Shown one piece after another: positions 30,767 to 51,600 of a stretch of 64,000 nt of DNA. The translations under genes and the position numbers were made by a program. The stretch is from Candidatus Bathyarchaeia archaeon. GTDB lineage: Archaea > Thermoproteota > Bathyarchaeia > Hecatellales > Hecatellaceae. The notes under the pieces are model-generated. The model saw only the letters and a list, made by a program, of their open reading frames with translations. It searched no databases and had not been told where the DNA came from. Within the stretch, counting starts at the first letter, position 1. Each line of letters opens with the position of its first letter. The stretch spans positions 51,696-115,695 of the forward strand of contig JAVZMI010000001.1 of NCBI GenBank assembly GCA_038883335.1, in the 5' to 3' direction.

Positions 30767-30966
30767 GGATGCATAGCGAAAATCCCAACAAAGGGAATTG
30801 AAACTGTTGTAGACCCTGAAATTAAGACGCTCTACCGAAACTACGGATGCATAGCGAAAATCCCAACAAAGGGAATTGAAACTTTTAAATAAGCTTCAAT
30901 TGCGGTGTTTTGGCTCATTATCGCGGGGGGATGCATAGCGAAAATCCCAACAAAGGGAATTGAAAG
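30767..30966 (+). CRISPR. Orphan CRISPR mini-array with three 38-nt repeats (GGATGCATAGCGAAAATCCCAACAAAGGGAATTGAAAC) and two spacers (40 and 46 nt)
   Basis: The repeats lie at 30767-30804, 30845-30882 and 30929-30966. The last repeat ends G instead of C. The repeat ends in ATTGAAAC, the typical 8-nt 5' handle of Cas6-processed crRNA. No cas genes occur in the window. Confidence 0.6.
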
Positions 30967-31038
30967 ATATGGGAAAGGTTTAACCGTGAATTACACGCTA
31001 AAAAGCTTTATATTGCGATATTGTTCTTCGTTTTTTGT

Positions 31039-31210
31039 CCCGCGGTAGCTCAGCCTGGAAGAGCTTCCGATCCTCGTGAAATAGCTGGGGAGGAGATGCT
31101 GTAGAGTTTGCCCGACGGGTAGACCCACCAGCCTTCCAGGCCAACAGAAACCGGAGTGTCGCAGGCTCAAAACTTCCACCGCGAAGGTGAGAATCCTGCC
31201 CGCGGGACCA
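31039..31210 (+). tRNA. Intron-containing tRNA gene (pre-tRNA about 172 nt), identity unresolved
   Basis: The 5' end carries acceptor stem CCCGCGG, then U8A9 and the D-arm GCUC-AGCCUGGAA-GAGC. The 3' end carries ...GCAGG...CCUGC-CCGCGGG-A-CCA, a 7-bp acceptor complement with an encoded CCA. About 95 nt of extra sequence lies between the halves, probably one intron in the anticodon region and one in the T-loop. The anticodon could not be assigned by eye. Confidence 0.5.
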
Positions 31211-31211
31211 A

Positions 31212-31919
31212 TTAAACTATCAGAAATTCATCAAGACACCTTAGTACAGCTAAGAGATCCTTAACTTCATGATCCGGTCTAGTTTGATCCCGAAATACAC
31301 GCTCACCTCTTCTATTAACCCAAATAGCCTTAACCCCCACTGCCTTCGCGGGTAGGATGTCGTGGGTGAGGTTGTCTCCTATGGTGACAGTCTCTCCTGG
31401 CTGCGAGTTAGAGAACTCCAAGGCTTCGCTGTAGAAGCGCGGGTCACTCTTACGGTAGCCTAAGATTTTCTCCTCCAAGGCTAATTCAAAATACACCCTA
31501 GACCCGAACTTCTCGACGCATTCAACCTTCTCTTGAGCGTGGCTCCCGGTTGCCAAACAGAGTTTGTATCCACGATCCTTAAGCATGTTAAGGAAATGGA
31601 AGGTCTCAGGATAGAAGGTAGGATTCCTCCAACAGTCCACCTCAGCCTCATAGTAGCCTTCTAAGATGCGTCTAACAGAAGACCTGTCGTAGGGGATGCC
31701 GAGATACTTGAAGAGCAACTTGCAATGAAATTCCCCATCGTCATGCCTCTCCGGGTAGAACTCGTGGACAAGTTCCCTATGGATATAGTAACAGTAGAGC
31801 TCCCAAAGCTTTGCCCCGCTAATGGGGAGTATGCCTTCAAGCCGCTCAGCAAACTTTGAATCCGAGTTGTGAAGCGTATTATCGTAATCTAACAGCACAG
31901 TCTTGATGTGCCGAACCAT
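31212..31919 (-). CDS. HAD-superfamily hydrolase
   Basis: 235 aa with the N-terminal nucleophile motif LLDYDNTLH and the C-terminal TIGDNLTHDILPAKAVGVKAIWVNR (motifs III/IV). Confidence 0.7.
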   Translation of the reverse strand: MVRHIKTVLLDYDNTLHNSDSKFAERLEGILPISGAKLWELYCYYIHRELVHEFYPERHDDGEFHCKLLFKYLGIPYDRSSVRRILEGYYEAEVDCWRNPTFYPETFHFLNMLKDRGYKLCLATGSHAQEKVECVEKFGSRVYFELALEEKILGYRKSDPRFYSEALEFSNSQPGETVTIGDNLTHDILPAKAVGVKAIWVNRRGERVFRDQTRPDHEVKDLLAVLRCLDEFLIV

Positions 31920-40843: not shown

Positions 40844-41158
40844 GTGGCAAGGTTGTCCGAAGAGAACCTTTGGAGTCAACTTAGACTCCTATCTCAAAAG
40901 GATGTAAGAAGAGTTTTATGCGAACTTTGCTTAGCCCCTGGTAGGAAAATGTCGCTTAAAGACCTAGCCTCTAGAACAGGGATCCCTTACACAACCGTAT
41001 ACCAGAAGATACAAGCAATGAGATCCGCAAGCCTGATTGATATGAAAGGAACGAAAAGAGAAGGCTTCACTGTCTATTTGAGAGACTTCGAACTACCGCC
41101 ACTTACCCCTGAAAGAATATGCGAGTTGGAGGGACGACCACTACCCAACATATTATGA
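40844..41158 (+). CDS. Winged-helix transcriptional regulator (ArsR/MarR-like)
   Basis: 104 aa with the HTH MSLKDLASRTGIPYTTVYQKIQAMRSASLI. Confidence 0.5.
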   Translation: MARLSEENLWSQLRLLSQKDVRRVLCELCLAPGRKMSLKDLASRTGIPYTTVYQKIQAMRSASLIDMKGTKREGFTVYLRDFELPPLTPERICELEGRPLPNIL

Positions 41159-41823
41159 GAGGGCAGATCTTGAAAGGAAACTATGTGGTCGTAGGGCTCA
41201 CCAATGAAAATGTTTGGAAAGAAGCTTTAAGATGCATTCGTAGAAATGGAGAATATATTACGGACCCTCAAAATCTAGAGAAAACCCAGGAGGTTCTAAA
41301 TCTAATCACCAGCATATTGAAGCCCTCTAACACGCTGCCTAGAGCATTCTCTAGAGACACGAAGATCAACGATCACCCCCACCTATTAGAAGGTCTAGTC
41401 AGACCTATCCCCGGCTTTAGCCCAGGAACACATCTCTGGGAATGGGCACTCCCTAGAGGACGACTGAATCAGATCGAAGATAACGTGACGAAAGTTCTCA
41501 GAAACAATCTACTCAGCCGCCGTGCAGTGGCATTAACTTTCCATCCAGGGATGGACTCTGAGCACATCCTCAACCCCCGCTATAGCTTCCCAGCTATACA
41601 GATTGTTGACTTCAAGTATAGGGAAGGGAGTCTACATCTGACCGCCTACCTGAGGTCTTGTGACATATATTCTTGGTGGCCGATAAACGTCGTCCAAGCC
41701 TACAGACTCCTCAAGAAAGTAGGAGAGAAACTTGACTTAAGTATAGGAACGCTCACATTGATGATCAGTAGCGCCCATGTCAAAGCAAGAAACCTAAAAA
41801 GGATTGAAACAATACTAGTTTAA
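41155..41823 (+). CDS. Thymidylate synthase (ThyA-fold) homolog lacking the catalytic cysteine
   Basis: 222 aa. It aligns by eye to E. coli ThyA. RRAVALTFHPG matches RRIIVSAWN, AYLRSCDIYSWWPINVVQAYRLL matches [22 protein letters not shown], and GTLTLMISSAHV matches GDFVWTGGDTHLY. The nucleophile motif P-C-H is replaced by P-R-Y. The start was taken at the internal ATG 41155; the ORF begins at 41119. Confidence 0.6.
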   Translation: MRGQILKGNYVVVGLTNENVWKEALRCIRRNGEYITDPQNLEKTQEVLNLITSILKPSNTLPRAFSRDTKINDHPHLLEGLVRPIPGFSPGTHLWEWALPRGRLNQIEDNVTKVLRNNLLSRRAVALTFHPGMDSEHILNPRYSFPAIQIVDFKYREGSLHLTAYLRSCDIYSWWPINVVQAYRLLKKVGEKLDLSIGTLTLMISSAHVKARNLKRIETILV

Positions 41824-43348: not shown

Positions 43349-45709
43349 TTGTTGCCCACGTCTCCTCAACGCTCTGAGAGAAACCCCCCCATCAACCAAA
43401 AAGGTGAAACGGAGATGAGCGAAGCGGCTAACCAAACTTGTAAAACATGCGGAGCGATCATGGAGCGGGGGAAGTGCCCCAAATGCACACCTTTTGAAGA
43501 GTTTATTAACCTTCCACTGGCGTCATGTGTGAATTGCGGTCACTATTTAGGCTTAGAGTGCCCCAGAGCTTCAATACACCAAGAGAATAGGCGAACCCGC
43601 ACCTTCACTGCAGACGACTATAAAATCTGTGAAAAGTGGACGTTAGCCATCAGAACTGCGGATGGCACAGTTTATAGACCTCTGGTGAACAAGGGAATCT
43701 CCGCTCATCCAGCCTCTCTCTTCCATAGCGGAGAAAACGGCATCATAGTTGGTGAGCTGACCTTCGCCCGTTCAGAAGTGGAAAAAACAAAGAAGGAAGA
43801 CCCAATAAAGACTAGAGAGATAACCGTTTATCTTTTTTGGTGCCACCACCACAACCACGAGCTCCAACTTTACTTTAAATCGCTCAGTGCAGTGGACGCC
43901 ATTCCCTATGGTGATAAAGAGATCTACCTCGAGAAGGATAACCTTGTGAAAGACCCAATTCAGACGTTGATACCGTTAGAGACTGTGGAGCGGGTTGCGG
44001 CTAGCCCTGAAGAGGCAAACAAAGAAGCGGAGTTCCCCGCAATTTTCAGACAGGTAAAGACAGAGCTCAGACGTTTTCTCAACCTAGAGTGGGATCCACG
44101 GCTTTACGATTTATTGGCATGTTACATTATCGCAACATACTTCTTCGACGCATTCCAAACGTTCCCATGGCTTTATTTCTATGGCTTTCAGGGATGCGGA
44201 AAAACAAGAGGAGCCCTAACGGTCACATATATGGCTAGACACGGTCACATGGTCACAAAACCGAGTGACGCTTCCATCTTCCGACTATGCCACGCCATCA
44301 AGCCCACCTTATGTGTGGACGAGGGACTGTTAGGACGGTCAGCTTGGAGTTTCGCCCGATCCACATTCAAGAAAGGCGTCAAGGTTCCACGAGTCGAGAA
44401 GACCCCACGAGAAGAGTTCGTTATTTCGCTCTTCGACTTGTACATGCCACTAGTCTTCGCTTCAACTAAGAAGCCCACTGAAGCGGGGGGGTTGAATGCG
44501 GATGAGGCACGTGCAATATTCATCCACATGGAACGAGCTCGAGACCCTATAGGTCGGGATCCCACGCCAGAAGACTTTGCCGCTCTAAGAGATCGGCTCT
44601 ACATGTTGCGGCTCTTCAAGGCTAAATGTGTCGTCGAGACGTCTAAGAACATTAATGTTCCGTTTCTGGGACATGAACGAGAAATATGGACGCCCATCTT
44701 CACGATTGCCAACTTAGTTGGGAAGGACGTTCTCTCTTCTCTCTATAAACTAGCAAACGACCTGTACGCTTCAAAGTTTGTAGAGTTAAATGTGAAAGAG
44801 AAGACAATACTTGACGCCATAGCCCTCCTATTCAAAGAAACGAACGAAAAAATTGTGTGTTTCACACCTTCTTCTCTTCAAGCGTACATCAAAACTGTGC
44901 TTATAGAAAGCGGAGAGTACGACGAACTCCACTTTCCAAAGATATGGAACGTGTATCTCATAGGCAGGCTCCTTTCAAGGATGAAACTCACACCCAAACG
45001 GGACACGGCTCGAAAATACTATATCACCCAGCCTCAGTTCGCCAAGCTTGAAAAACAATTTGGTATAGAGCTCGACGTTTTCGACGTTTTCGACGTTAAT
45101 GTGGAAGAACCATCTACCCCCACTTCAGACCCCAATACCCTATCCCTAAAATTAACGTCGAATTCGTCGAATTCGTCGAACGATAAAAAAGAAAGCTTAG
45201 ACAACGCCTCTTTAAACGAAAAAACCTTAGAAAAAGGCGAATTTAGAGATAGTGTTAAAAATAAAGCTTCTCAACCTGAAATAGAAGCTAAAAAAGACGA
45301 ACAGACCGCTCTAGAGAGTGAAAGTTTCGACGTTTTCGACGTTTTCGACGTTAATGTGGAAGAACCCCCTACCCCCACTTCAGACCCCAATACCCTATCC
45401 CTAAAATTAACGTCGAATTCGTCGAATTCGTCGAACGACGAGAGGGGGAACGGCTCTCATGGTGGCTTTAATGATGTTTCTTGCGGCACTTCTAACAGTG
45501 GTTCTGTTGGCGTTTCTAGTGAGGTTTCTAGTTGCACTGTAGAGAAGCACCACTGTCTCACAACGGAGGGTAGTGAACCTCAACCGATGGTCAGTGGAGT
45601 ACCAGGTCTCCCACCAAGGTTCAAATGTGAGATCTGTGGACGGAAGTTCCGTTTCCCCTACGATGTGCTCTCACATAAGCAAACCGACCACGGTTTAAAG
45701 GTGGTCTAA
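43349..45709 (+). CDS. Element-encoded Zn-finger/P-loop NTPase (putative replication helicase or initiator) with a C-terminal tandem-repeat region and a C2H2 zinc finger
   Basis: 786 aa. The N-terminal Zn-ribbons are CKTCG...CPKC and CVNCGH...C. Walker A is GFQGCGKT and Walker B is LCVDEG. It is followed by two copies of FDVFDVFDVNVEEP(S/P)TPTSDPNTLSLKLTSNSSNSSND and a terminal C2H2 finger FKCEICGRKFRFPYDVLSHKQTDH. Confidence 0.55.
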   Translation: MLPTSPQRSERNPPINQKGETEMSEAANQTCKTCGAIMERGKCPKCTPFEEFINLPLASCVNCGHYLGLECPRASIHQENRRTRTFTADDYKICEKWTLAIRTADGTVYRPLVNKGISAHPASLFHSGENGIIVGELTFARSEVEKTKKEDPIKTREITVYLFWCHHHNHELQLYFKSLSAVDAIPYGDKEIYLEKDNLVKDPIQTLIPLETVERVAASPEEANKEAEFPAIFRQVKTELRRFLNLEWDPRLYDLLACYIIATYFFDAFQTFPWLYFYGFQGCGKTRGALTVTYMARHGHMVTKPSDASIFRLCHAIKPTLCVDEGLLGRSAWSFARSTFKKGVKVPRVEKTPREEFVISLFDLYMPLVFASTKKPTEAGGLNADEARAIFIHMERARDPIGRDPTPEDFAALRDRLYMLRLFKAKCVVETSKNINVPFLGHEREIWTPIFTIANLVGKDVLSSLYKLANDLYASKFVELNVKEKTILDAIALLFKETNEKIVCFTPSSLQAYIKTVLIESGEYDELHFPKIWNVYLIGRLLSRMKLTPKRDTARKYYITQPQFAKLEKQFGIELDVFDVFDVNVEEPSTPTSDPNTLSLKLTSNSSNSSNDKKESLDNASLNEKTLEKGEFRDSVKNKASQPEIEAKKDEQTALESESFDVFDVFDVNVEEPPTPTSDPNTLSLKLTSNSSNSSNDERGNGSHGGFNDVSCGTSNSGSVGVSSEVSSCTVEKHHCLTTEGSEPQPMVSGVPGLPPRFKCEICGRKFRFPYDVLSHKQTDHGLKVV
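45072..45438. repeat. Two 112-nt near-identical direct repeats (45072-45183 and 45327-45438, period 255 nt) inside the 786-aa ORF, with embedded micro-repeats (tcgacgtttt x2.5; tcgaattcg x2)
   Basis: The copies were aligned directly. They differ only in ccatct versus ccccct. They encode the duplicated low-complexity protein segment. Confidence 0.8.
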
Positions 45710-46657
45710 ATGCGGAGAGAAGACTTCTGGTTTGAGTGGTTCGGCTTGTTCGGCAGAGAGGTTGGTAACCCGTTTCGGTTCTTCGTAGACAACCCTATAG
45801 ATTTCGTCAAGTTTGTTGAGAAATGTGAAGCGGCGAAGTCTCCAGTCTTCATGTCAGTGAACCATTATCGGGATCGAGACACGGTTTACGCTCTCGACAA
45901 GCTTTTCTTCGATTTTGACAACGCAACAGAGCCTGAGAAAGCCATCTATGAGGCTCTCCAGTTCGCAGAGATTTTAAAACGGTTCTACCATGCGGAGCCC
46001 TTAATCGTTCGCTCAGGTCTCAAAGGTGCGGGTGTCTACGTTTTCTTTCCACAAGCCATAACTGGAGCCCCCGAAGACTTAGCAGAGGTCTATCGCAAAG
46101 TCGCCAGCCTCATCTTGAAGGGTCTCCAGTTCTCCACGTTAGACCATCAGGTTCTGGGGGACGTTAAACGGCTAAGTCGGGTTCCTTATACACGCCACGA
46201 GAAGAGCGGTCAAATGTGCATCCCCATAAACGAGAAAGGAGTGGAAGTCAACCTGAGCGGGGAAGACTTGGCGAAAATCAGAGAGAGAAGCCCCCTACCC
46301 GCTCACATGCTCAAACTTGCATGGCACCACATCTTCTTGGAGCGGAAGGTGAGAGCGGGGGAAGGAAACCGCAACCAAGCCCCCCCTTTCAATAAGATTA
46401 GAACACCAGTTCAAGACCTCATATTGTTAGCTAAGGCTGGAGCCCACCTTTCCCACCACGGATACCTAGCCATACTCTTCGAACTCATCAACAACGGTTA
46501 CACAGACGACCAGATCCTTTCCCTCTTTAGAACGCTCTTCAAATCCAAGTTTAACGAGAAAGAGACCCGCTACTTCATCACGCATGCCCGAAAGAAACGC
46601 TACCTACCCTTCAGCATCTCACGGGTAAAACATGAACTAAATCTACTCTCACCTTAG
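45710..46657 (+). CDS. Archaeo-eukaryotic primase (AEP/prim-pol) superfamily protein
   Basis: 315 aa. It has the catalytic acidic motif LFFDFDN (hhhDhD), SGLKGAGVYVFF (SGxRG-like motif II) and LSRVPYTRHEKSG (motif III). Its start abuts the stop of the upstream NTPase gene. Confidence 0.6.
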   Translation: MRREDFWFEWFGLFGREVGNPFRFFVDNPIDFVKFVEKCEAAKSPVFMSVNHYRDRDTVYALDKLFFDFDNATEPEKAIYEALQFAEILKRFYHAEPLIVRSGLKGAGVYVFFPQAITGAPEDLAEVYRKVASLILKGLQFSTLDHQVLGDVKRLSRVPYTRHEKSGQMCIPINEKGVEVNLSGEDLAKIRERSPLPAHMLKLAWHHIFLERKVRAGEGNRNQAPPFNKIRTPVQDLILLAKAGAHLSHHGYLAILFELINNGYTDDQILSLFRTLFKSKFNEKETRYFITHARKKRYLPFSISRVKHELNLLSP

Positions 46658-47385: not shown

Positions 47386-48633
47386 TTAAGTTAGAAGCTT
47401 CCTTATCTCCGCAACCTCTTCCAACGCCCTGTTAATCCTTCCAGTGAGCTCCGTGTTCTCCAACTCCAACCTTGCCATCCTGCTCTTAAGCTCCAAGTTT
47501 TCTGCAGAGAGGTTCTCTATCACCTTCTGGAGGCTTTGGATGCGTTCATCCACCTTGGCGTCAACCTTCCTCTCAATCTCCGACGGGTCGACTGGAGGGG
47601 GGGTTATGCTCAGTAAGCGTTCCCGTTCGAGATACATCTTCCTGAGGCTCTCAAACTGGAGCCCTTTATACGCTTCCGCCATCTCTCCGATTGCATGCCC
47701 TAACCAGAAGTCAACTATGGTGTCTGGTACGCCTGAGTTAATCATTATGCTACCGAAGCTTTCACGCAAGGCATGGGGACTTAACGGGTTGATGTCTCTA
47801 CCGTTATTATAGGGGTCTATGAAGCCCGCCTTTAATGCCACCTCTCTCAACATGTTCTGGACTAGGTGTGGTTGAAGTGGAGCCCCATGTGGTCGTTCCC
47901 TTTGGAATAGTGGCGAACCGTCTTGAAGCTTCACACCTCTGGCTTCAAGGTCTCGGAGGTAGACTTTGACTGCTTCTATTGCGTCACGCCCAAGGAATGT
48001 GAAATATTCCACTCCAGTTTTCGGTCGGTAGAGGTCTAGCTTGAGGGGGATCTCTCCAGACTCGAGACCTCTCCGTATGTCTCCATATTTGAGACTGCAC
48101 AGTGTCGAGACATCCATCCCGCTTTGAAACATGGTGAGAATGACGGCTTTGTCACGGGGGTTCCTTGCATGATCCACCAACAACTTGACCTGACTAGAGC
48201 TCAACCTCATCCTTCGGTTGGTTACCTTCGGTTTGGGAAGCCTGTAGCGGCCCTTAAGGCGCACTTCAACGTCGAAAGTCGAGTAGAAGCTTCTTATGGC
48301 GGTTATGTAGAGGTTTGCGGCTTTATCGCTCAAACCCTTCTTGACTTCTGTATGTTCGCATCTTCCACGCCTTTTTATGGGGTAATCCTTTTTCAAATAT
48401 TGGTAGAACCCGACTATCCTGTTGAGGACTATGCCACGCCTTTGGCGTATGTCTCTGGTTTGGTCTTCTACGGCTTCGTCGATGAGTTGGCTTGCGGTTA
48501 GACCTGTGAAGGCTAGGTATGCTCTGATGGCGGTTTTGTAGCTTGCTTTGGTAGACGGTTTAGTTACGGGGTCAAGCCACCTTGATATGGCGGGGTCTTC
48601 TAAGTTTATCAGCTCAATTTGTGGAGACGACAT
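47386..48633 (-). CDS. int: Tyrosine recombinase/integrase (phage-integrase family), full length
   Basis: 415 aa with an N-terminal SAM-like domain. The C-terminal catalytic domain has R...HALRESFGS (H-x-x-R)...GHAIGEMAEAYKG with a terminal Tyr region. The gene is not split, which points to a pNOB8-type integrase. Confidence 0.8.
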   Translation of the reverse strand: MSSPQIELINLEDPAISRWLDPVTKPSTKASYKTAIRAYLAFTGLTASQLIDEAVEDQTRDIRQRRGIVLNRIVGFYQYLKKDYPIKRRGRCEHTEVKKGLSDKAANLYITAIRSFYSTFDVEVRLKGRYRLPKPKVTNRRMRLSSSQVKLLVDHARNPRDKAVILTMFQSGMDVSTLCSLKYGDIRRGLESGEIPLKLDLYRPKTGVEYFTFLGRDAIEAVKVYLRDLEARGVKLQDGSPLFQRERPHGAPLQPHLVQNMLREVALKAGFIDPYNNGRDINPLSPHALRESFGSIMINSGVPDTIVDFWLGHAIGEMAEAYKGLQFESLRKMYLERERLLSITPPPVDPSEIERKVDAKVDERIQSLQKVIENLSAENLELKSRMARLELENTELTGRINRALEEVAEIRKLLT

Positions 48634-48853: not shown

Positions 48854-49090
48854 ATGAGAGCCTACGTGTTAATCACCACCAAACCAGGGACCTCCGAAGA
48901 AGTCCTCAGACAGATCAAGACTACACGGGAGATCAAAGGTGTTATTCTGGCCGACTCGGTCTACGGTCGGTTTGATGCAGTAGTCGTGATCGAGGCGGAA
49001 AACCTAGAGACCATAACCGACATCATATACAAGGTGATAGAGAAATACCCGAACATAACTCACACCGAAACACTTTTGACCTTATTCTGA
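48854..49090 (+). CDS. Stand-alone RAM (Lrp/AsnC C-terminal ligand-binding) domain protein
   Basis: 78 aa. MRAYVLITTKPGTSEEV...GRFDAVVVIEAENLETITDIIYKVIEKYPNITHTETL fits the RAM beta-alpha-beta-beta-alpha-beta pattern. Confidence 0.55.
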   Translation: MRAYVLITTKPGTSEEVLRQIKTTREIKGVILADSVYGRFDAVVVIEAENLETITDIIYKVIEKYPNITHTETLLTLF

Positions 49091-49122: not shown

Positions 49123-49362
49123 TCAAGGAGGATGGAAGAGCGCGACAAGGGTCTCGGTATGGATGATGTTAGGGGCTTTCTCAATCATCTCGTAGATTAT
49201 CTTGGATAATTCTTCAAAGTCCGCCGCCTCGATCACAGCTACTGCATCAAACCGACCTAGGACTGAGTTAATCATCTTCACCCCCCTAATCCGTCTAGCC
49301 TTAACAAGCTCTTCCGAAGTTCCCGGCTTAGTTGTAACCAGCACGAAGGCACGAACCGGCAA
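49123..49362 (-). CDS. Stand-alone RAM domain protein, a paralog of 48854..49090 in convergent orientation
   Basis: 79 aa, MPVRAFVLVTTKPGTSEEL...GRFDAVAVIEAADFEELSKIIYEMIEKAPNIIHTETL. It is about 55% identical to its neighbour. Confidence 0.55.
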   Translation of the reverse strand: MPVRAFVLVTTKPGTSEELVKARRIRGVKMINSVLGRFDAVAVIEAADFEELSKIIYEMIEKAPNIIHTETLVALFHPP

Positions 49363-49446: not shown

Positions 49447-49827
49447 TTAGATGACATTAAACTTTAAAGTGTTACCGTCTCGATCAAATATGACTATATC
49501 CTCCTCGGTTTTGTAGGGGTAAGCTACAATCGCCATCAGGCTGCCGTAAAAATTGTTTAAATCCTCTATTGAGGGACGCTTAGCGCCAGATGGATGTGAA
49601 TGCGCCACCCCCACAATGGATGGATCTATTGGCAACATGAAGAATGGAAAGCTGGAGAAATTGTAGCTATGAGTGGCCAAAGGTGGTATCACGGTGCCAG
49701 TTATGTTGACAGCACCTTTCCGAGTCGTACCTCGCAGAAGAAGGATTCCCTCCTTTGGGTGAAATATCTGGGCATAACTAAGTAGACTATCGATGACCTC
49801 ACGTTTTATCGAGACAACCCTCCCCAA
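49447..49827 (-). CDS. JAMM/MPN+ (Mov34) family metalloprotease-like protein
   Basis: 126 aa with the JAMM motif E...HSHPSG-x6-PSxxD (VAHSHPSGAKRPSIEDL). Confidence 0.7.
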   Translation of the reverse strand: MGRVVSIKREVIDSLLSYAQIFHPKEGILLLRGTTRKGAVNITGTVIPPLATHSYNFSSFPFFMLPIDPSIVGVAHSHPSGAKRPSIEDLNNFYGSLMAIVAYPYKTEEDIVIFDRDGNTLKFNVI

Positions 49828-49982
49828 ATCAACCGCCGTAGGAACAGTAAACGCCTCCGGGAAGAAGCGCCTACTCAGTCCCTATTATAAATTGTTATTT
49901 ACACTTTTCCACCCTCTCTACCAAGTTGCAAGAGGACTGAATTGACGCAAGACATATTAGGCTTAATTTGAGATTCAAGTAT

Positions 49983-50125
49983 GCCCCGGTCAAGCCTCGG
50001 TTCCCTCGGTGAAGGGTGAGAGAGCGCAGCATGGTTGGCGCGTGGCCTTGGTAAAATATTAAAGCAAATTGATTGCACCTACAAAAAGGCTAAGGTCGCG
50101 GGTTCAAATCCCGCCCGGGGCTCCA
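49983..50125 (+). tRNA. tRNA-Thr(GGU) with two introns: a non-canonical one near positions 8/9 (about 32 nt, 49991-50022) and a canonical 37/38 intron (33 nt, 50054-50086)
   Basis: The deduced mature tRNA is GCCCCGG-UA-GCGC-AGCAUGGUUG-GCGC-G-UGGCC-UUGGUAA-GGCUA-AGGUC-GCGGG-UUCAAAU-CCCGC-CCGGGGC-U-CCA. The acceptor has 7 bp, and the D, anticodon (U33, GGU, A37) and T arms are canonical. The discriminator is U and the CCA is encoded. Confidence 0.75.
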
Positions 50126-50223: not shown

Positions 50224-51600
50224 GTGATTGAAGTGATCGCCCTGGAAGAGATGCGAGAGATTGCACGCAGATATAAAAATCCGATGGGGTTAGTTTTAGG
50301 TTCCCACTCAGCCTTGGACGCGATGGCTGGGCTGAGGGACTACGGAATAAGGGGGCTCATCTATACGACTAAGGGTAGGGCTGAGATATATTTAAGGGAG
50401 CCCAGAGTTGGAAGACCTGAGGAGGAGATTGAGAATCTACCACAAGTAGTCGAGCGTGACCTCTACGTATCAGAAGACATCCGAGACATTGCTAGAAAAA
50501 AAGAGCGCTGGTCCGTTGCGATCCTAATCTTAGACCGTTATGATGAAATATTGAAGCCGGAGAACATTGACACGTTGCTTGAATTGGAGGCTATCCAGAT
50601 ACCTAACCGAGCCTTCGCCGTGTATGTTGGCGGAGATAATTGTGAGAAGATTGAGGATGACTTCTCCGTCCCGATCCTTGGCTCGCGGGGGCTCCTCAAG
50701 ATAGAAGACAGAGAGAAACTTGAGAAGAATTATTATTGGTACCTGGAGCAGGCGGGGATCCCCCACCCAACTCCATACAAATACGAAATTACTGGCGATG
50801 GGATAAAGTTTCCAAAGGAAATCGAGCAACCTCTAGTTCTAAAGATCCCCCACGCGGGAAGGAGACTTGAGAGAGGGTTCATATTTGCCGCTAATGGGGC
50901 TAGTTTGGAGGAGGAAGTGAGAAACGCCCTAGCATCAGGGGAGATTCTGTTCGAAGATCTGAAGGATGGGAGAGTCGAAGAATATATTCCAGGTGTAACC
51001 GCCAACCTAAACTTCTTCTATTCACCCCTATACGCAGAGGAGAACTGGGGAGTTGTAGAGAACTATGTAAGTAGAAGCAGGCTGGCGAACGAGTTTCTCT
51101 CAATAGATGAGAGGAGAGAAACAACTCACGACGGCATACTCCGCATGCTGGCAAGAGACCAGTTGAAAGCTGATTGGAGCAAGACCAACTACCCCATAAG
51201 CTTTGAGGTGACAGCTCACAGCTTAATCAGTCTGAGGGAGTCCCTTCTGAGAAAGATCTACCCGATAGCTGACGCTTTCGTCGAGTTTACCCAGAAGTCA
51301 GACCCGCCGGGAATGATTGGAGCCTATTGCATCCAGACATTGATAACCTTTGAAAAGCAACCATATGTCGAAGCAGTAACTCAAGGTGTCTACGACGCGG
51401 CTGGCAGCGCCTTCTACGATTTCGTCCCAAAAACGCAAGATGTGGCAGTTAGGCACGGTGGCGGAACCAACGTCCATCAAGGCATCGGCTCCCAGTATGC
51501 AAATGCAAAATATAAGCGAGTCATGAGTACAGGGGACAGAATCGCTTTGGAGATCGTCAGGGCGAAGAAGAAGGGCATGCTAGATAGGATAGTAACCTAA
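50224..51600 (+). CDS. PurP-like ATP-grasp enzyme (5-formaminoimidazole-4-carboxamide ribonucleotide synthetase family)
   Basis: 458 aa. The N-terminal LVLGSHSALDAMAGLRDYG resembles the PurP GSHSAL signature, and the ATP-grasp-like central region fits. It is longer than canonical PurP, which is about 360 aa. Confidence 0.5.
   Translation: MIEVIALEEMREIARRYKNPMGLVLGSHSALDAMAGLRDYGIRGLIYTTKGRAEIYLREPRVGRPEEEIENLPQVVERDLYVSEDIRDIARKKERWSVAILILDRYDEILKPENIDTLLELEAIQIPNRAFAVYVGGDNCEKIEDDFSVPILGSRGLLKIEDREKLEKNYYWYLEQAGIPHPTPYKYEITGDGIKFPKEIEQPLVLKIPHAGRRLERGFIFAANGASLEEEVRNALASGEILFEDLKDGRVEEYIPGVTANLNFFYSPLYAEENWGVVENYVSRSRLANEFLSIDERRETTHDGILRMLARDQLKADWSKTNYPISFEVTAHSLISLRESLLRKIYPIADAFVEFTQKSDPPGMIGAYCIQTLITFEKQPYVEAVTQGVYDAAGSAFYDFVPKTQDVAVRHGGGTNVHQGIGSQYANAKYKRVMSTGDRIALEIVRAKKKGMLDRIVT

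Follow-up and report, generated by a model that had tools for sequence, protein, structure and literature searches.

A 64,000-nucleotide (nt) stretch of contig JAVZMI010000001.1 from a Candidatus Bathyarchaeia archaeon, hereafter the window, was analyzed with a focus on an interrupted tRNA gene at positions 49983–50125 of the plus strand. The explanation that we favor, with moderate confidence when taken as a whole, is that this locus is a functional tRNA-Thr(GGU) gene of Bathyarchaeia that has two protein-spliced introns of the bulge-helix-bulge (BHB) type and, in its leader, a spare copy of the acceptor 5′ strand that would act as a decoy. The parts of this reading differ in firmness: the gene and both intron positions (8/9 and 37/38 in tRNA numbering) are very likely correct, exon 1 is probably the second of two acceptor-like strands (49994–50001), and the leader copy has a slightly better than even chance of being a cis-acting decoy for the 3′ strand that lets the BHB form. 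The ordinary part of the locus is a multi-intron archaeal tRNA gene of known kind in an under-studied lineage; the interesting part is a conserved, covarying leader copy that is tied to the 8/9 intron.

The tRNA-Thr(GGU) gene and its two introns

The initial annotation had proposed that a cloverleaf is recovered only when two inserts are removed, a 32-nt one behind GCCCCGG plus T and a 33-nt one in the anticodon loop. The elements described were found in the sequence, with GCCCCGG plus T at 49983–49990, the D-arm from 50023, and the 33-nt insert at 50054–50086, and removal of the 32- and 33-nt inserts in silico left 78 nt that ARAGORN called as tRNA-Thr(ggt) with a flawless cloverleaf. Only the double deletion yielded this call. 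ARAGORN in default mode reported no tRNA across the whole 64-kb window, and Rfam gave a marginal 30.3-bit tRNA match at 50045–50122, a misfold that takes GCCUUGG as the acceptor strand. Likewise, neither the unspliced sequence nor the single-insert removals were called, apart from a tRNA-Phe(aaa) with an intron at 33/34 that was returned by ARAGORN -i after removal of intron 1; this candidate was rejected, as its BHB is poor (two of the four central helix positions mismatched) and the tRNA body is of the Thr type. The chance of a perfect 7-mer complement plus T inside about 40 nt is ~6 × 10⁻⁴, and since in silico splicing yields a perfect cloverleaf, the initial description of an interrupted tRNA is real and non-random.

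The tRNA type was examined by scanning the 23-nt 3′ end against one genome per GTDB species, which returned at least 120 loci, nearly all archaeal, that have the 3′ half GGGTTCAAATCCCGCCCGGGGCT in common. Among the matches listed, all genes that were readable through the anticodon were tRNA-Thr (CGT, TGT, or GGT). Because this 3′ end is common to archaeal tRNA-Thr genes, the body is of the Thr type, and the anticodon GGU is fixed by the BHB register of the canonical (37/38) intron. A degenerate exon 2 pattern had no match in the genome scan and the anticodon-arm/T-arm junction had none in the metagenome scan; public data rarely contain this exact sequence. Regarding the host, PurP (50224–51600) and JAB were found to match, at 100% identity, proteins encoded on a 207-kb contig of a metagenome-assembled genome (MAG) labeled Candidatus Bathyarchaeia archaeon, and their relatives at 60–88% identity are from Bathyarchaeia/Bathyarchaeota. 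The lineage had been described beforehand as one of multi-intron tRNAs, which is borne out by a three-intron tRNA-Tyr gene in the same window, and as Thermoproteales/Thermofilaceae-like, which gives way to Bathyarchaeia on the evidence of PurP and JAB.

The plus strand from 49983 reads GCCCCGG T CAA GCCTCGG T TCCCTCGGTGAAGGGTGAGAG AGCGC AGCATGGTTG GCGC G TGGCC TTGGTA, followed by the 33 nt of intron 2, and continues to 50125 with A GGCTA AGGTC GCGGG TTCAAAT CCCGC CCGGGGC T CCA (Table 1). Inside the supposed 32-nt insert lies a second acceptor-like strand plus U8, GCCTCGGT; the upstream strand is referred to as copy A and this second strand as copy B. Candidate splice sites were scored, after calibration on introns of related genes, by a scheme in which (i) the 5′ bulge comprises p−1, p, and i1; (ii) a central helix (H) has 4 bp; (iii) the 3′ bulge comprises i(n−1), i(n), and p+1; and (iv) an outer helix (h) and an inner helix (h′) flank these elements. 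With copy B as exon 1, intron 1 forms a strict hBHBh′ in which all positions are paired (2 + 4 + 4), with two 3-nt bulges and a local energy of −5.9 kcal/mol; 10 pairs at set positions would arise by chance with a probability of ~5 × 10⁻⁵. With copy A as exon 1, H becomes C-G, C·A, C-G, and G·U, no inner helix is formed, and the local energy is +1.0 kcal/mol. The BHB of intron 2 is relaxed, with 3/4 pairs in H (G35·A mismatch) and the anticodon stem as outer helix; the same pattern, three pairs and then a mismatch, is also present in the related genes L103, L085, and L013. When T50001 is joined to A50023 and A50053 to A50087, the product GCCUCGGU-AGCGC... has a 7-bp acceptor stem with one U·G, and GCCTCGG is paired with CCGGGGC in many intron-less archaeal tRNA-Thr genes.

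These results support a tRNA-Thr(GGU) gene with introns at 8/9 and at the canonical 37/38, as had been claimed, by both the splice product and the BHB register. For intron 1, the initial annotation was most likely right about the 8/9 position but not about the 32-nt length or the identity of exon 1; among the junctions scored, those of the copy B intron 1 (strict) and of intron 2 (relaxed) have BHB structures, and that of the 32-nt copy A intron is mismatched and unstable. Judged by geometry, splice product, and covariation (below), the gene belongs to the BHB-intron class. If the copy B assignment is true, the annotation of the mature 5′ end is corrected, with U4·G69 rather than C4-G69. A third, partial acceptor-like copy, CCCTCGGT (50003–50010), was also noted within intron 1, where it provides h′ and some of the loop, and may be a vestige of the origin of the intron.

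TABLE 1 Predicted features of the tRNA-Thr locus and its surroundings (window coordinates)
Feature	Position	Strand	Remark
TATA-like box ACATATTA, putative promoter	49952..49959	+	Ends 23 nt before upstream acceptor copy
Second TATA-like box CTTAATTT	49962..49969	+	24 nt before exon 1
Leader copy of acceptor 5′ strand, GCCCCGG (copy A), proposed decoy	49983..49989	+	Perfect complement of 3′ acceptor strand
Leader spacer TCAA between acceptor copies	49990..49993	+	Family spacers 4–10 nt, unconserved
Probable exon 1 (copy B), GCCTCGG plus U8	49994..50001	+	U4·G69 wobble; adjoins strict BHB; spelled GCCUCGGU in proposed gene structure
Intron 1, 21 nt, tRNA positions 8/9	50002..50022	+	hBHBh′ scoring, covariation, RNAalifold
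Intron 1 h, 2 bp	49994-50025, 49995-50024		G1-C11, C2-G10
Intron 1 H	49996-50020, 49997-50019, 49998-50018, 49999·50017		C3-G, U4-A, C5-G, G6·U
Intron 1 bulges	5′, 50000–50002; 3′, 50021–50023		GUU; AGA
Intron 1 h′, 4 bp	50003–50006 with 50013–50016		CCCU/AGGG
Exon 2	50023..50053	+	A9, D-arm GCGC/AGCATGGTTG/GCGC, G26, TGGCC, loop TTGGTA (anticodon GGT)
Anticodon stem-loop TGGCC/TTGGTA	Starts 50043	+	
Intron 2, 33 nt, canonical 37/38	50054..50086	+	Relaxed BHB
Exon 3	50087..50122	+	A38, GGCTA, variable loop AGGTC, T-arm GCGGG/TTCAAAT/CCCGC, acceptor strand CCGGGGC
3′ acceptor strand CCGGGGC	50115–50121	+	Discriminator T at 50122
CCA end	50123..50125	+	Genome encoded
AsnC	48854–49090		
AsnC-like open reading frame (ORF)	49123–49362		
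JAB	49447–49827		
Integrase	47386–48633	−	Pfam Phage_integrase, E = 3 × 10⁻¹⁸
PriL-like gene	45710–46657		In inserted block
786-amino-acid ORF	43349–45709		In inserted block
112-nt direct repeat	45072–45183, 45327–45438		98% identical; inside 786-amino-acid ORF
Thymidylate-synthase-like gene	41119–41823		In inserted block
tRNA-Tyr(GUA)	31039–31210	+	C1-G72; three introns
tRNA-Tyr intron, 28 nt	31070–31097		Position 30/31
tRNA-Tyr intron, 45 nt	31105–31149		Canonical position
tRNA-Tyr intron, 22 nt	31172–31193		T-loop, position 59/60
37-nt repeat GGATGCATAGCGAAAATCCCAACAAAGGGAATTGAAA, three copies	30767–30985		Spacings 78 and 84 nt

Relatives with an 8/9 intron and a leader copy

A syntenic ortholog, L149 (JGI Ga0366836_1024309), was reached via the JAB-AsnC-AsnC cluster, with a JAB protein that is 71% identical and the tRNA gene in the same divergent position. 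It reads GCCCCGG-CTCC-GCCTCGGT, then the intron TCTCGCAGAGAGTGGGAG, then AGCGCAGCGTGGTCGGCGCG TGGCC TTGGTA, an intron of 24 nt, and A GGCTA... Intron 1 of L149 has 18 nt and is followed by AGCGCAGC. The inner helix is compensated, being CUC/GAG rather than the CCCU/AGGG of the window, such that the intron differs and the BHB is kept. The upstream copy in L149 is followed by C, not U, and therefore cannot supply U8. The synteny route through purP gave no orthologs, as purM and no tRNA was found beside purP in relatives L001 to L003; in the window, purP instead follows the tRNA-Thr gene and the JAB cluster, indicating that the local gene order has been rearranged.

Further relatives were collected by a metagenome scan with a pattern that asked only for a single GCCYCGGT followed by a gap, by YGRGNN, and by an exon 2 carrying anticodon GGT. 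With L103, which came from the genome scan, and the window gene, the 25 loci recovered make up a family of 27 tRNA-Thr(GGU) genes, in which the 8/9 intron has 13–26 nt and the canonical intron is present in some and absent in others. The family includes a marine branch (L125, L128, and others), and the named relatives closest to its contigs are Thaumarchaeota/Nitrososphaerota MAGs. When the 45 nt upstream of exon 1 were searched, 24/27 genes were found to have, 4–10 nt before exon 1, a leader 7-mer able to pair at 7/7 positions with the 3′ acceptor strand of the same gene, in the variants GCCCCGG, GCCTCGG, GCTCCGG, and GTCCCGG. Among control tRNA-Thr genes lacking the 8/9 intron, such a 7/7 leader 7-mer was present in 3/111, about the chance rate. 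The association of leader copy and 8/9 intron was significant by gene (Fisher P = 2 × 10⁻²⁰) and when 11/12 lineages were counted (P = 3 × 10⁻¹²), and since a leader copy was not part of the metagenome search pattern, the association is free of ascertainment bias. The rest of the leader and the spacer could not be aligned across the family.

Covariation was examined in a 41-column concatenation of the relevant segments with 18 distinct rows. Overall, 93.5% of the cells were paired, compared with 34–47% when the partners were slid by 1–3 columns. The helix of the leader copy with the 3′ strand was 96.8% paired, with position 4 found as CG (14), UA (3), or UG (1). The H helix was 100% paired in the 18 sequences, with CG (11), UA (6), or UG (1) at position 4 and no C·A, and double changes were detected at all four h′ pairs. 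In several genes (the window gene, L149, L133/L141, and L148), the copies have diverged and can be told apart: the leader copy fits the 3′ strand and mismatches the intron strand (C·A), while exon 1 has a perfect match to the intron strand and a single wobble on the 3′ strand. Independently, RNAalifold on 17 unedited precursors paired the leader copy with the 3′ strand and C3 to G6 of exon 1 with the intron.

The position of the promoter was also compared. The TATA-like box ACATATTA of the window aligns with GTATATTA in L149, and conserved TATA-like AAAGTTAATTA and variants end 22–25 nt before the leader copy in related genes. In the tRNA-Tyr gene of the window, TTTATATT ends 24 nt before the mature 5′ end. 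As the spacing to the leader copy equals that to a mature tRNA 5′ end, the sequence suggests that the transcript begins at the leader copy.

Other tRNA genes were surveyed in the same collections. Among 189 tRNA-like candidates from the loci gathered here, no other tRNA type had two close acceptor copies; these were confined to the tRNA-Thr family and L081 (CAZWKG010000056.1, Bathyarchaeia). The tRNA-Thr(GGU) gene of L081 has no 8/9 intron, yet carries GCCCTGG in its leader 8 nt before the 5′ end, possibly left over from an 8/9 intron that has been lost. Three bathyarchaeial tRNA-Thr genes (L083, L085, and L111) were found to have, besides a canonical intron, one in the D-arm (22/23 or 23/24, with a one-base ambiguity), and they lack a leader copy; tRNA-Thr genes with several introns thus recur in Bathyarchaeia, with the introns at different positions. 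Four loci (L051, L077, L087, and L113), two of them from Nanohaloarchaea, had a tRNA-Thr-type 3′ end and no matching 5′ acceptor strand within 230 nt, and may be split, permuted, or heavily interrupted genes.

A putative decoy for the 3′ acceptor strand and its alternatives

The BHB of intron 1 engages tRNA nucleotides 1–6 in pairs with G10-C11 and the 3′ portion of the intron, so these nucleotides cannot at the same time pair with the 3′ acceptor strand. Formation of this BHB therefore competes with the 7-bp, G+C-rich acceptor stem. The effect of the leader copy on this competition was examined by folding the 27 precursors in a partition-function calculation. In 22 of them the leader copy was paired with the 3′ strand at P ≥ 0.75, with the lowest values in L124 and the three genes whose copy pairs only 5/7, and the H helix reached P values of up to 0.96. 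When the leader copy was changed to A7 in silico, exon 1 moved onto the 3′ strand (P ≥ 0.93) and P(H) fell to ≤ 0.03 in 27/27 genes. Constrained ensembles of the window gene gave −51.6 kcal/mol for the BHB with the decoy paired, −51.2 kcal/mol for exon 1 on the 3′ strand, and −39.2 kcal/mol for the BHB with the decoy blocked. These folding models suggest the following path. The GCCCCGG at 49983–49989 would lie outside the exons, as a conserved element located where the primary transcript starts or close to that point. By pairing with the 3′ strand, it would remove the stronger competitor and allow the splicing endonuclease to see the BHB. After excision of the two introns and ligation of the exons, the 3′ strand would pass to the true 5′ strand, and RNase P would then remove the 11-nt leader irreversibly.

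Several observations weigh against this interpretation. With respect to energy, the local minimum free energy structure is a register-shifted fold on the GAGAGAG run (−9.8 versus −5.9 kcal/mol for the strict BHB), the z-scores of the local BHB segments are not significant, and the H helix has a P of only 0.12 in the window; with a BHB that is not the local minimum and z-scores that are unremarkable, the case rests on geometry, comparison, and covariation, not on energy. After in silico removal of intron 1, nearest-neighbor energies still favor the leader copy on the 3′ strand, by 0.1–7.6 kcal/mol, and the proposed strand switch thus needs tertiary structure or the irreversible RNase P cleavage. 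With respect to conservation, the other 3/27 genes have GCCCCAT, which pairs at only 5/7 positions, and because the family is a single tRNA species, its 27 genes amount to ~12 independent lineages at most. With respect to the transcript, we infer the mature 5′ end (G49994 or G49983) from the sequence, and the box CTTAATTT is spaced for a start at exon 1; if this box is used, the leader copy is outside the transcript. Two alternative transcription starts are possible. Finally, a literature check limited to open-access text turned up nothing relevant on the 8/9 position or a leader acceptor copy, and an earlier description elsewhere is possible.

The alternative readings differ mainly in the role given to copy A. 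According to the initial annotation, GCCCCGGU (49983–49990) is exon 1, a single 32-nt intron (49991–50022) is located at 8/9, and GCCTCGGT is merely intron. Copy A is indeed a perfect complement of the 3′ strand followed by T, splicing with it as exon 1 gives a perfect cloverleaf, its distance from the promoter-like box is that of a normal tRNA 5′ end, and in the L126 group the two copies are identical and each is followed by T. We nonetheless regard this parse as unlikely, for its BHB has a C·A in the middle of the helix, no inner helix, and the unfavorable energy given above; in L149 and most of the family, the base after the distal copy is C, G, or A, so that position 8 would not be U; and copy B on the 3′ strand with copy A in the BHB would need a pseudoknot. 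A hand check of the sequence also revealed no second BHB that could remove the spacer plus copy B after the first splicing. A somewhat stronger, though still rather doubtful, alternative keeps the copy B parse and takes the upstream copy to be functionless, a relic of duplication or intron insertion. Tandem copies 4–10 nt apart do resemble a local duplication; a third, partial copy, CCCTCGGT, lies within intron 1 of the window gene; L081 retains its leader GCCCTGG in a gene that has no 8/9 intron, and the post-splicing energetics disfavor release of a decoy. A relic is hard to reconcile, however, with a 7-mer that is kept in 11/12 lineages amid unalignable flanking leader and spacer and is strongly associated with the 8/9 intron. 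In addition, the differences between copies are C/U changes opposite G that keep the pairing, and in the marine group the leader copy and the 3′ strand change together to U-A.

We consider it very improbable that the locus is a tRNA pseudogene, decaying or without function, or that it is an artifact of assembly with a tandem duplication. The failure of ARAGORN and Rfam on the raw sequence would fit such an origin, as would the lack of an exact match to exon 2 or to the anticodon-arm/T-arm junction in two large collections. Against this stand the perfect cloverleaf after splicing, the conserved promoter-like box, a second multi-intron tRNA gene with strict BHBs in the same window, and the same architecture with compensatory changes in the syntenic ortholog from an independent metagenome.

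Genomic neighborhood and relation to known systems

The integrase gene lies 1.35 kb from the tRNA-Thr gene, and tRNA genes are common integration targets in archaea; hence the initial proposal that this tRNA is the attachment site of the integrase-bearing element. This proposal was not upheld and is, in our assessment, most improbable. The AsnC, AsnC-like, and JAB genes that intervene between the integrase and tRNA-Thr are a conserved host cluster in L149 and L150. L150 is collinear with the window over 49842–48835 and then jumps to 38405–38039, which identifies the integrase-bearing block as a roughly 10.4-kb insertion at about 38.42–48.84 kb, with an element boundary that is not at tRNA-Thr. 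Furthermore, no second copy of the tRNA 3′ half or exon 2, nor a repeat of any tRNA segment, was detected in the window with up to 3 mismatches, only 11- to 13-mers at chance level. Two repeats were tried and rejected as attachment (att) sites, D7 (38823 and 50187) and D14 (38936 and 48148), as their 12-mer cores are at chance level, and an att core was not readable from the alignment of the element junctions with L150, where the intergenic DNA is too diverged. Apart from the genes in Table 1, the inserted element has several ORFs without a Pfam match, and its G+C content falls to 0.41 at 40–42 kb. A 112-nt direct repeat was observed inside its 786-amino-acid ORF.

The tRNA-Tyr(GUA) gene of the window was missed by both ARAGORN and Rfam, with no Rfam match on 30950–31350. 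It has three introns, each with a good BHB, and after splicing in silico it was called tRNA-Tyr(gta) by ARAGORN. Just upstream of it are three copies of a 37-nt repeat that look like a mini clustered regularly interspaced short palindromic repeat (CRISPR) array.

Archaeal tRNA genes that have several introns, with BHB motifs at non-canonical positions, are well known from Thermoproteales and other Crenarchaeota (Sugahara et al. 2007/2008, reviewed in PMC4090602 and PMC4033280). The window gene is like these in that BHB-defined introns can be anywhere in the tRNA, with several per gene, and are missed by standard finders. It differs in its bathyarchaeial host and in position 8/9, which is absent from the open-ended list of intron positions in these reviews (3/4, 20/21, 22/23, 25/26, 29/30, 30/31, 45/46, 53/54, 56/57, 59/60 "etc."; PMC4090602 and PMC4033280). 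Non-canonical tRNA introns are also known in Thaumarchaeota, for which tRNAscan-SE 2.0 has a Thaum-BHB model (PMC8450103). Like the window gene, these are short non-canonical BHB introns in TACK (Thaumarchaeota, Aigarchaeota, Crenarchaeota, and Korarchaeota) archaea outside Thermoproteales, and the contigs of the marine branch of the family have Thaumarchaeota/Nitrososphaerota MAGs as their closest named relatives; the paper gives counts only, with no intron positions or leader features (PMC8450103). In the split tRNAs of Nanoarchaeum equitans and in permuted tRNAs, non-mature leader or trailer sequence is essential in shaping the precursor for the endonuclease (PMC4090602), as is proposed for the window gene. 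There, the extra sequence forms the BHB itself, whereas in the window it is proposed to hold the 3′ acceptor strand, in a gene that is contiguous and cis-spliced. The SSV-type and pNOB8-type tRNA integration targets resemble the window in having an integrase-bearing element nearby, but the tRNA-Thr gene here is unduplicated, host genes intervene, and the synteny break is elsewhere. A decoy element would be new within the BHB-intron class, although a prior description is possible.

Disrupted tRNA genes are a long-standing puzzle, and the 8/9 intron raises the question of how an intron is tolerated where its splicing motif competes with the strongest helix of the tRNA. The window locus and its 26 relatives suggest a simple and testable answer, in which a spare acceptor strand in the leader occupies the 3′ end until splicing is done. 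More generally, we would put at about even the prospect that introns abutting the acceptor stem at 8/9 depend on a dedicated cis decoy at the 5′ end of the transcript, which would enforce splicing before RNase P action, and that this arrangement is common to Bathyarchaeia and marine Nitrososphaerota-like lineages. If true, this would (i) explain introns that adjoin the acceptor stem; (ii) predict a fixed order of processing steps; and (iii) provide gene finders with a new signature for bathyarchaeial tRNAs that are missed by ARAGORN and Rfam, of which the 64-kb window alone has two.

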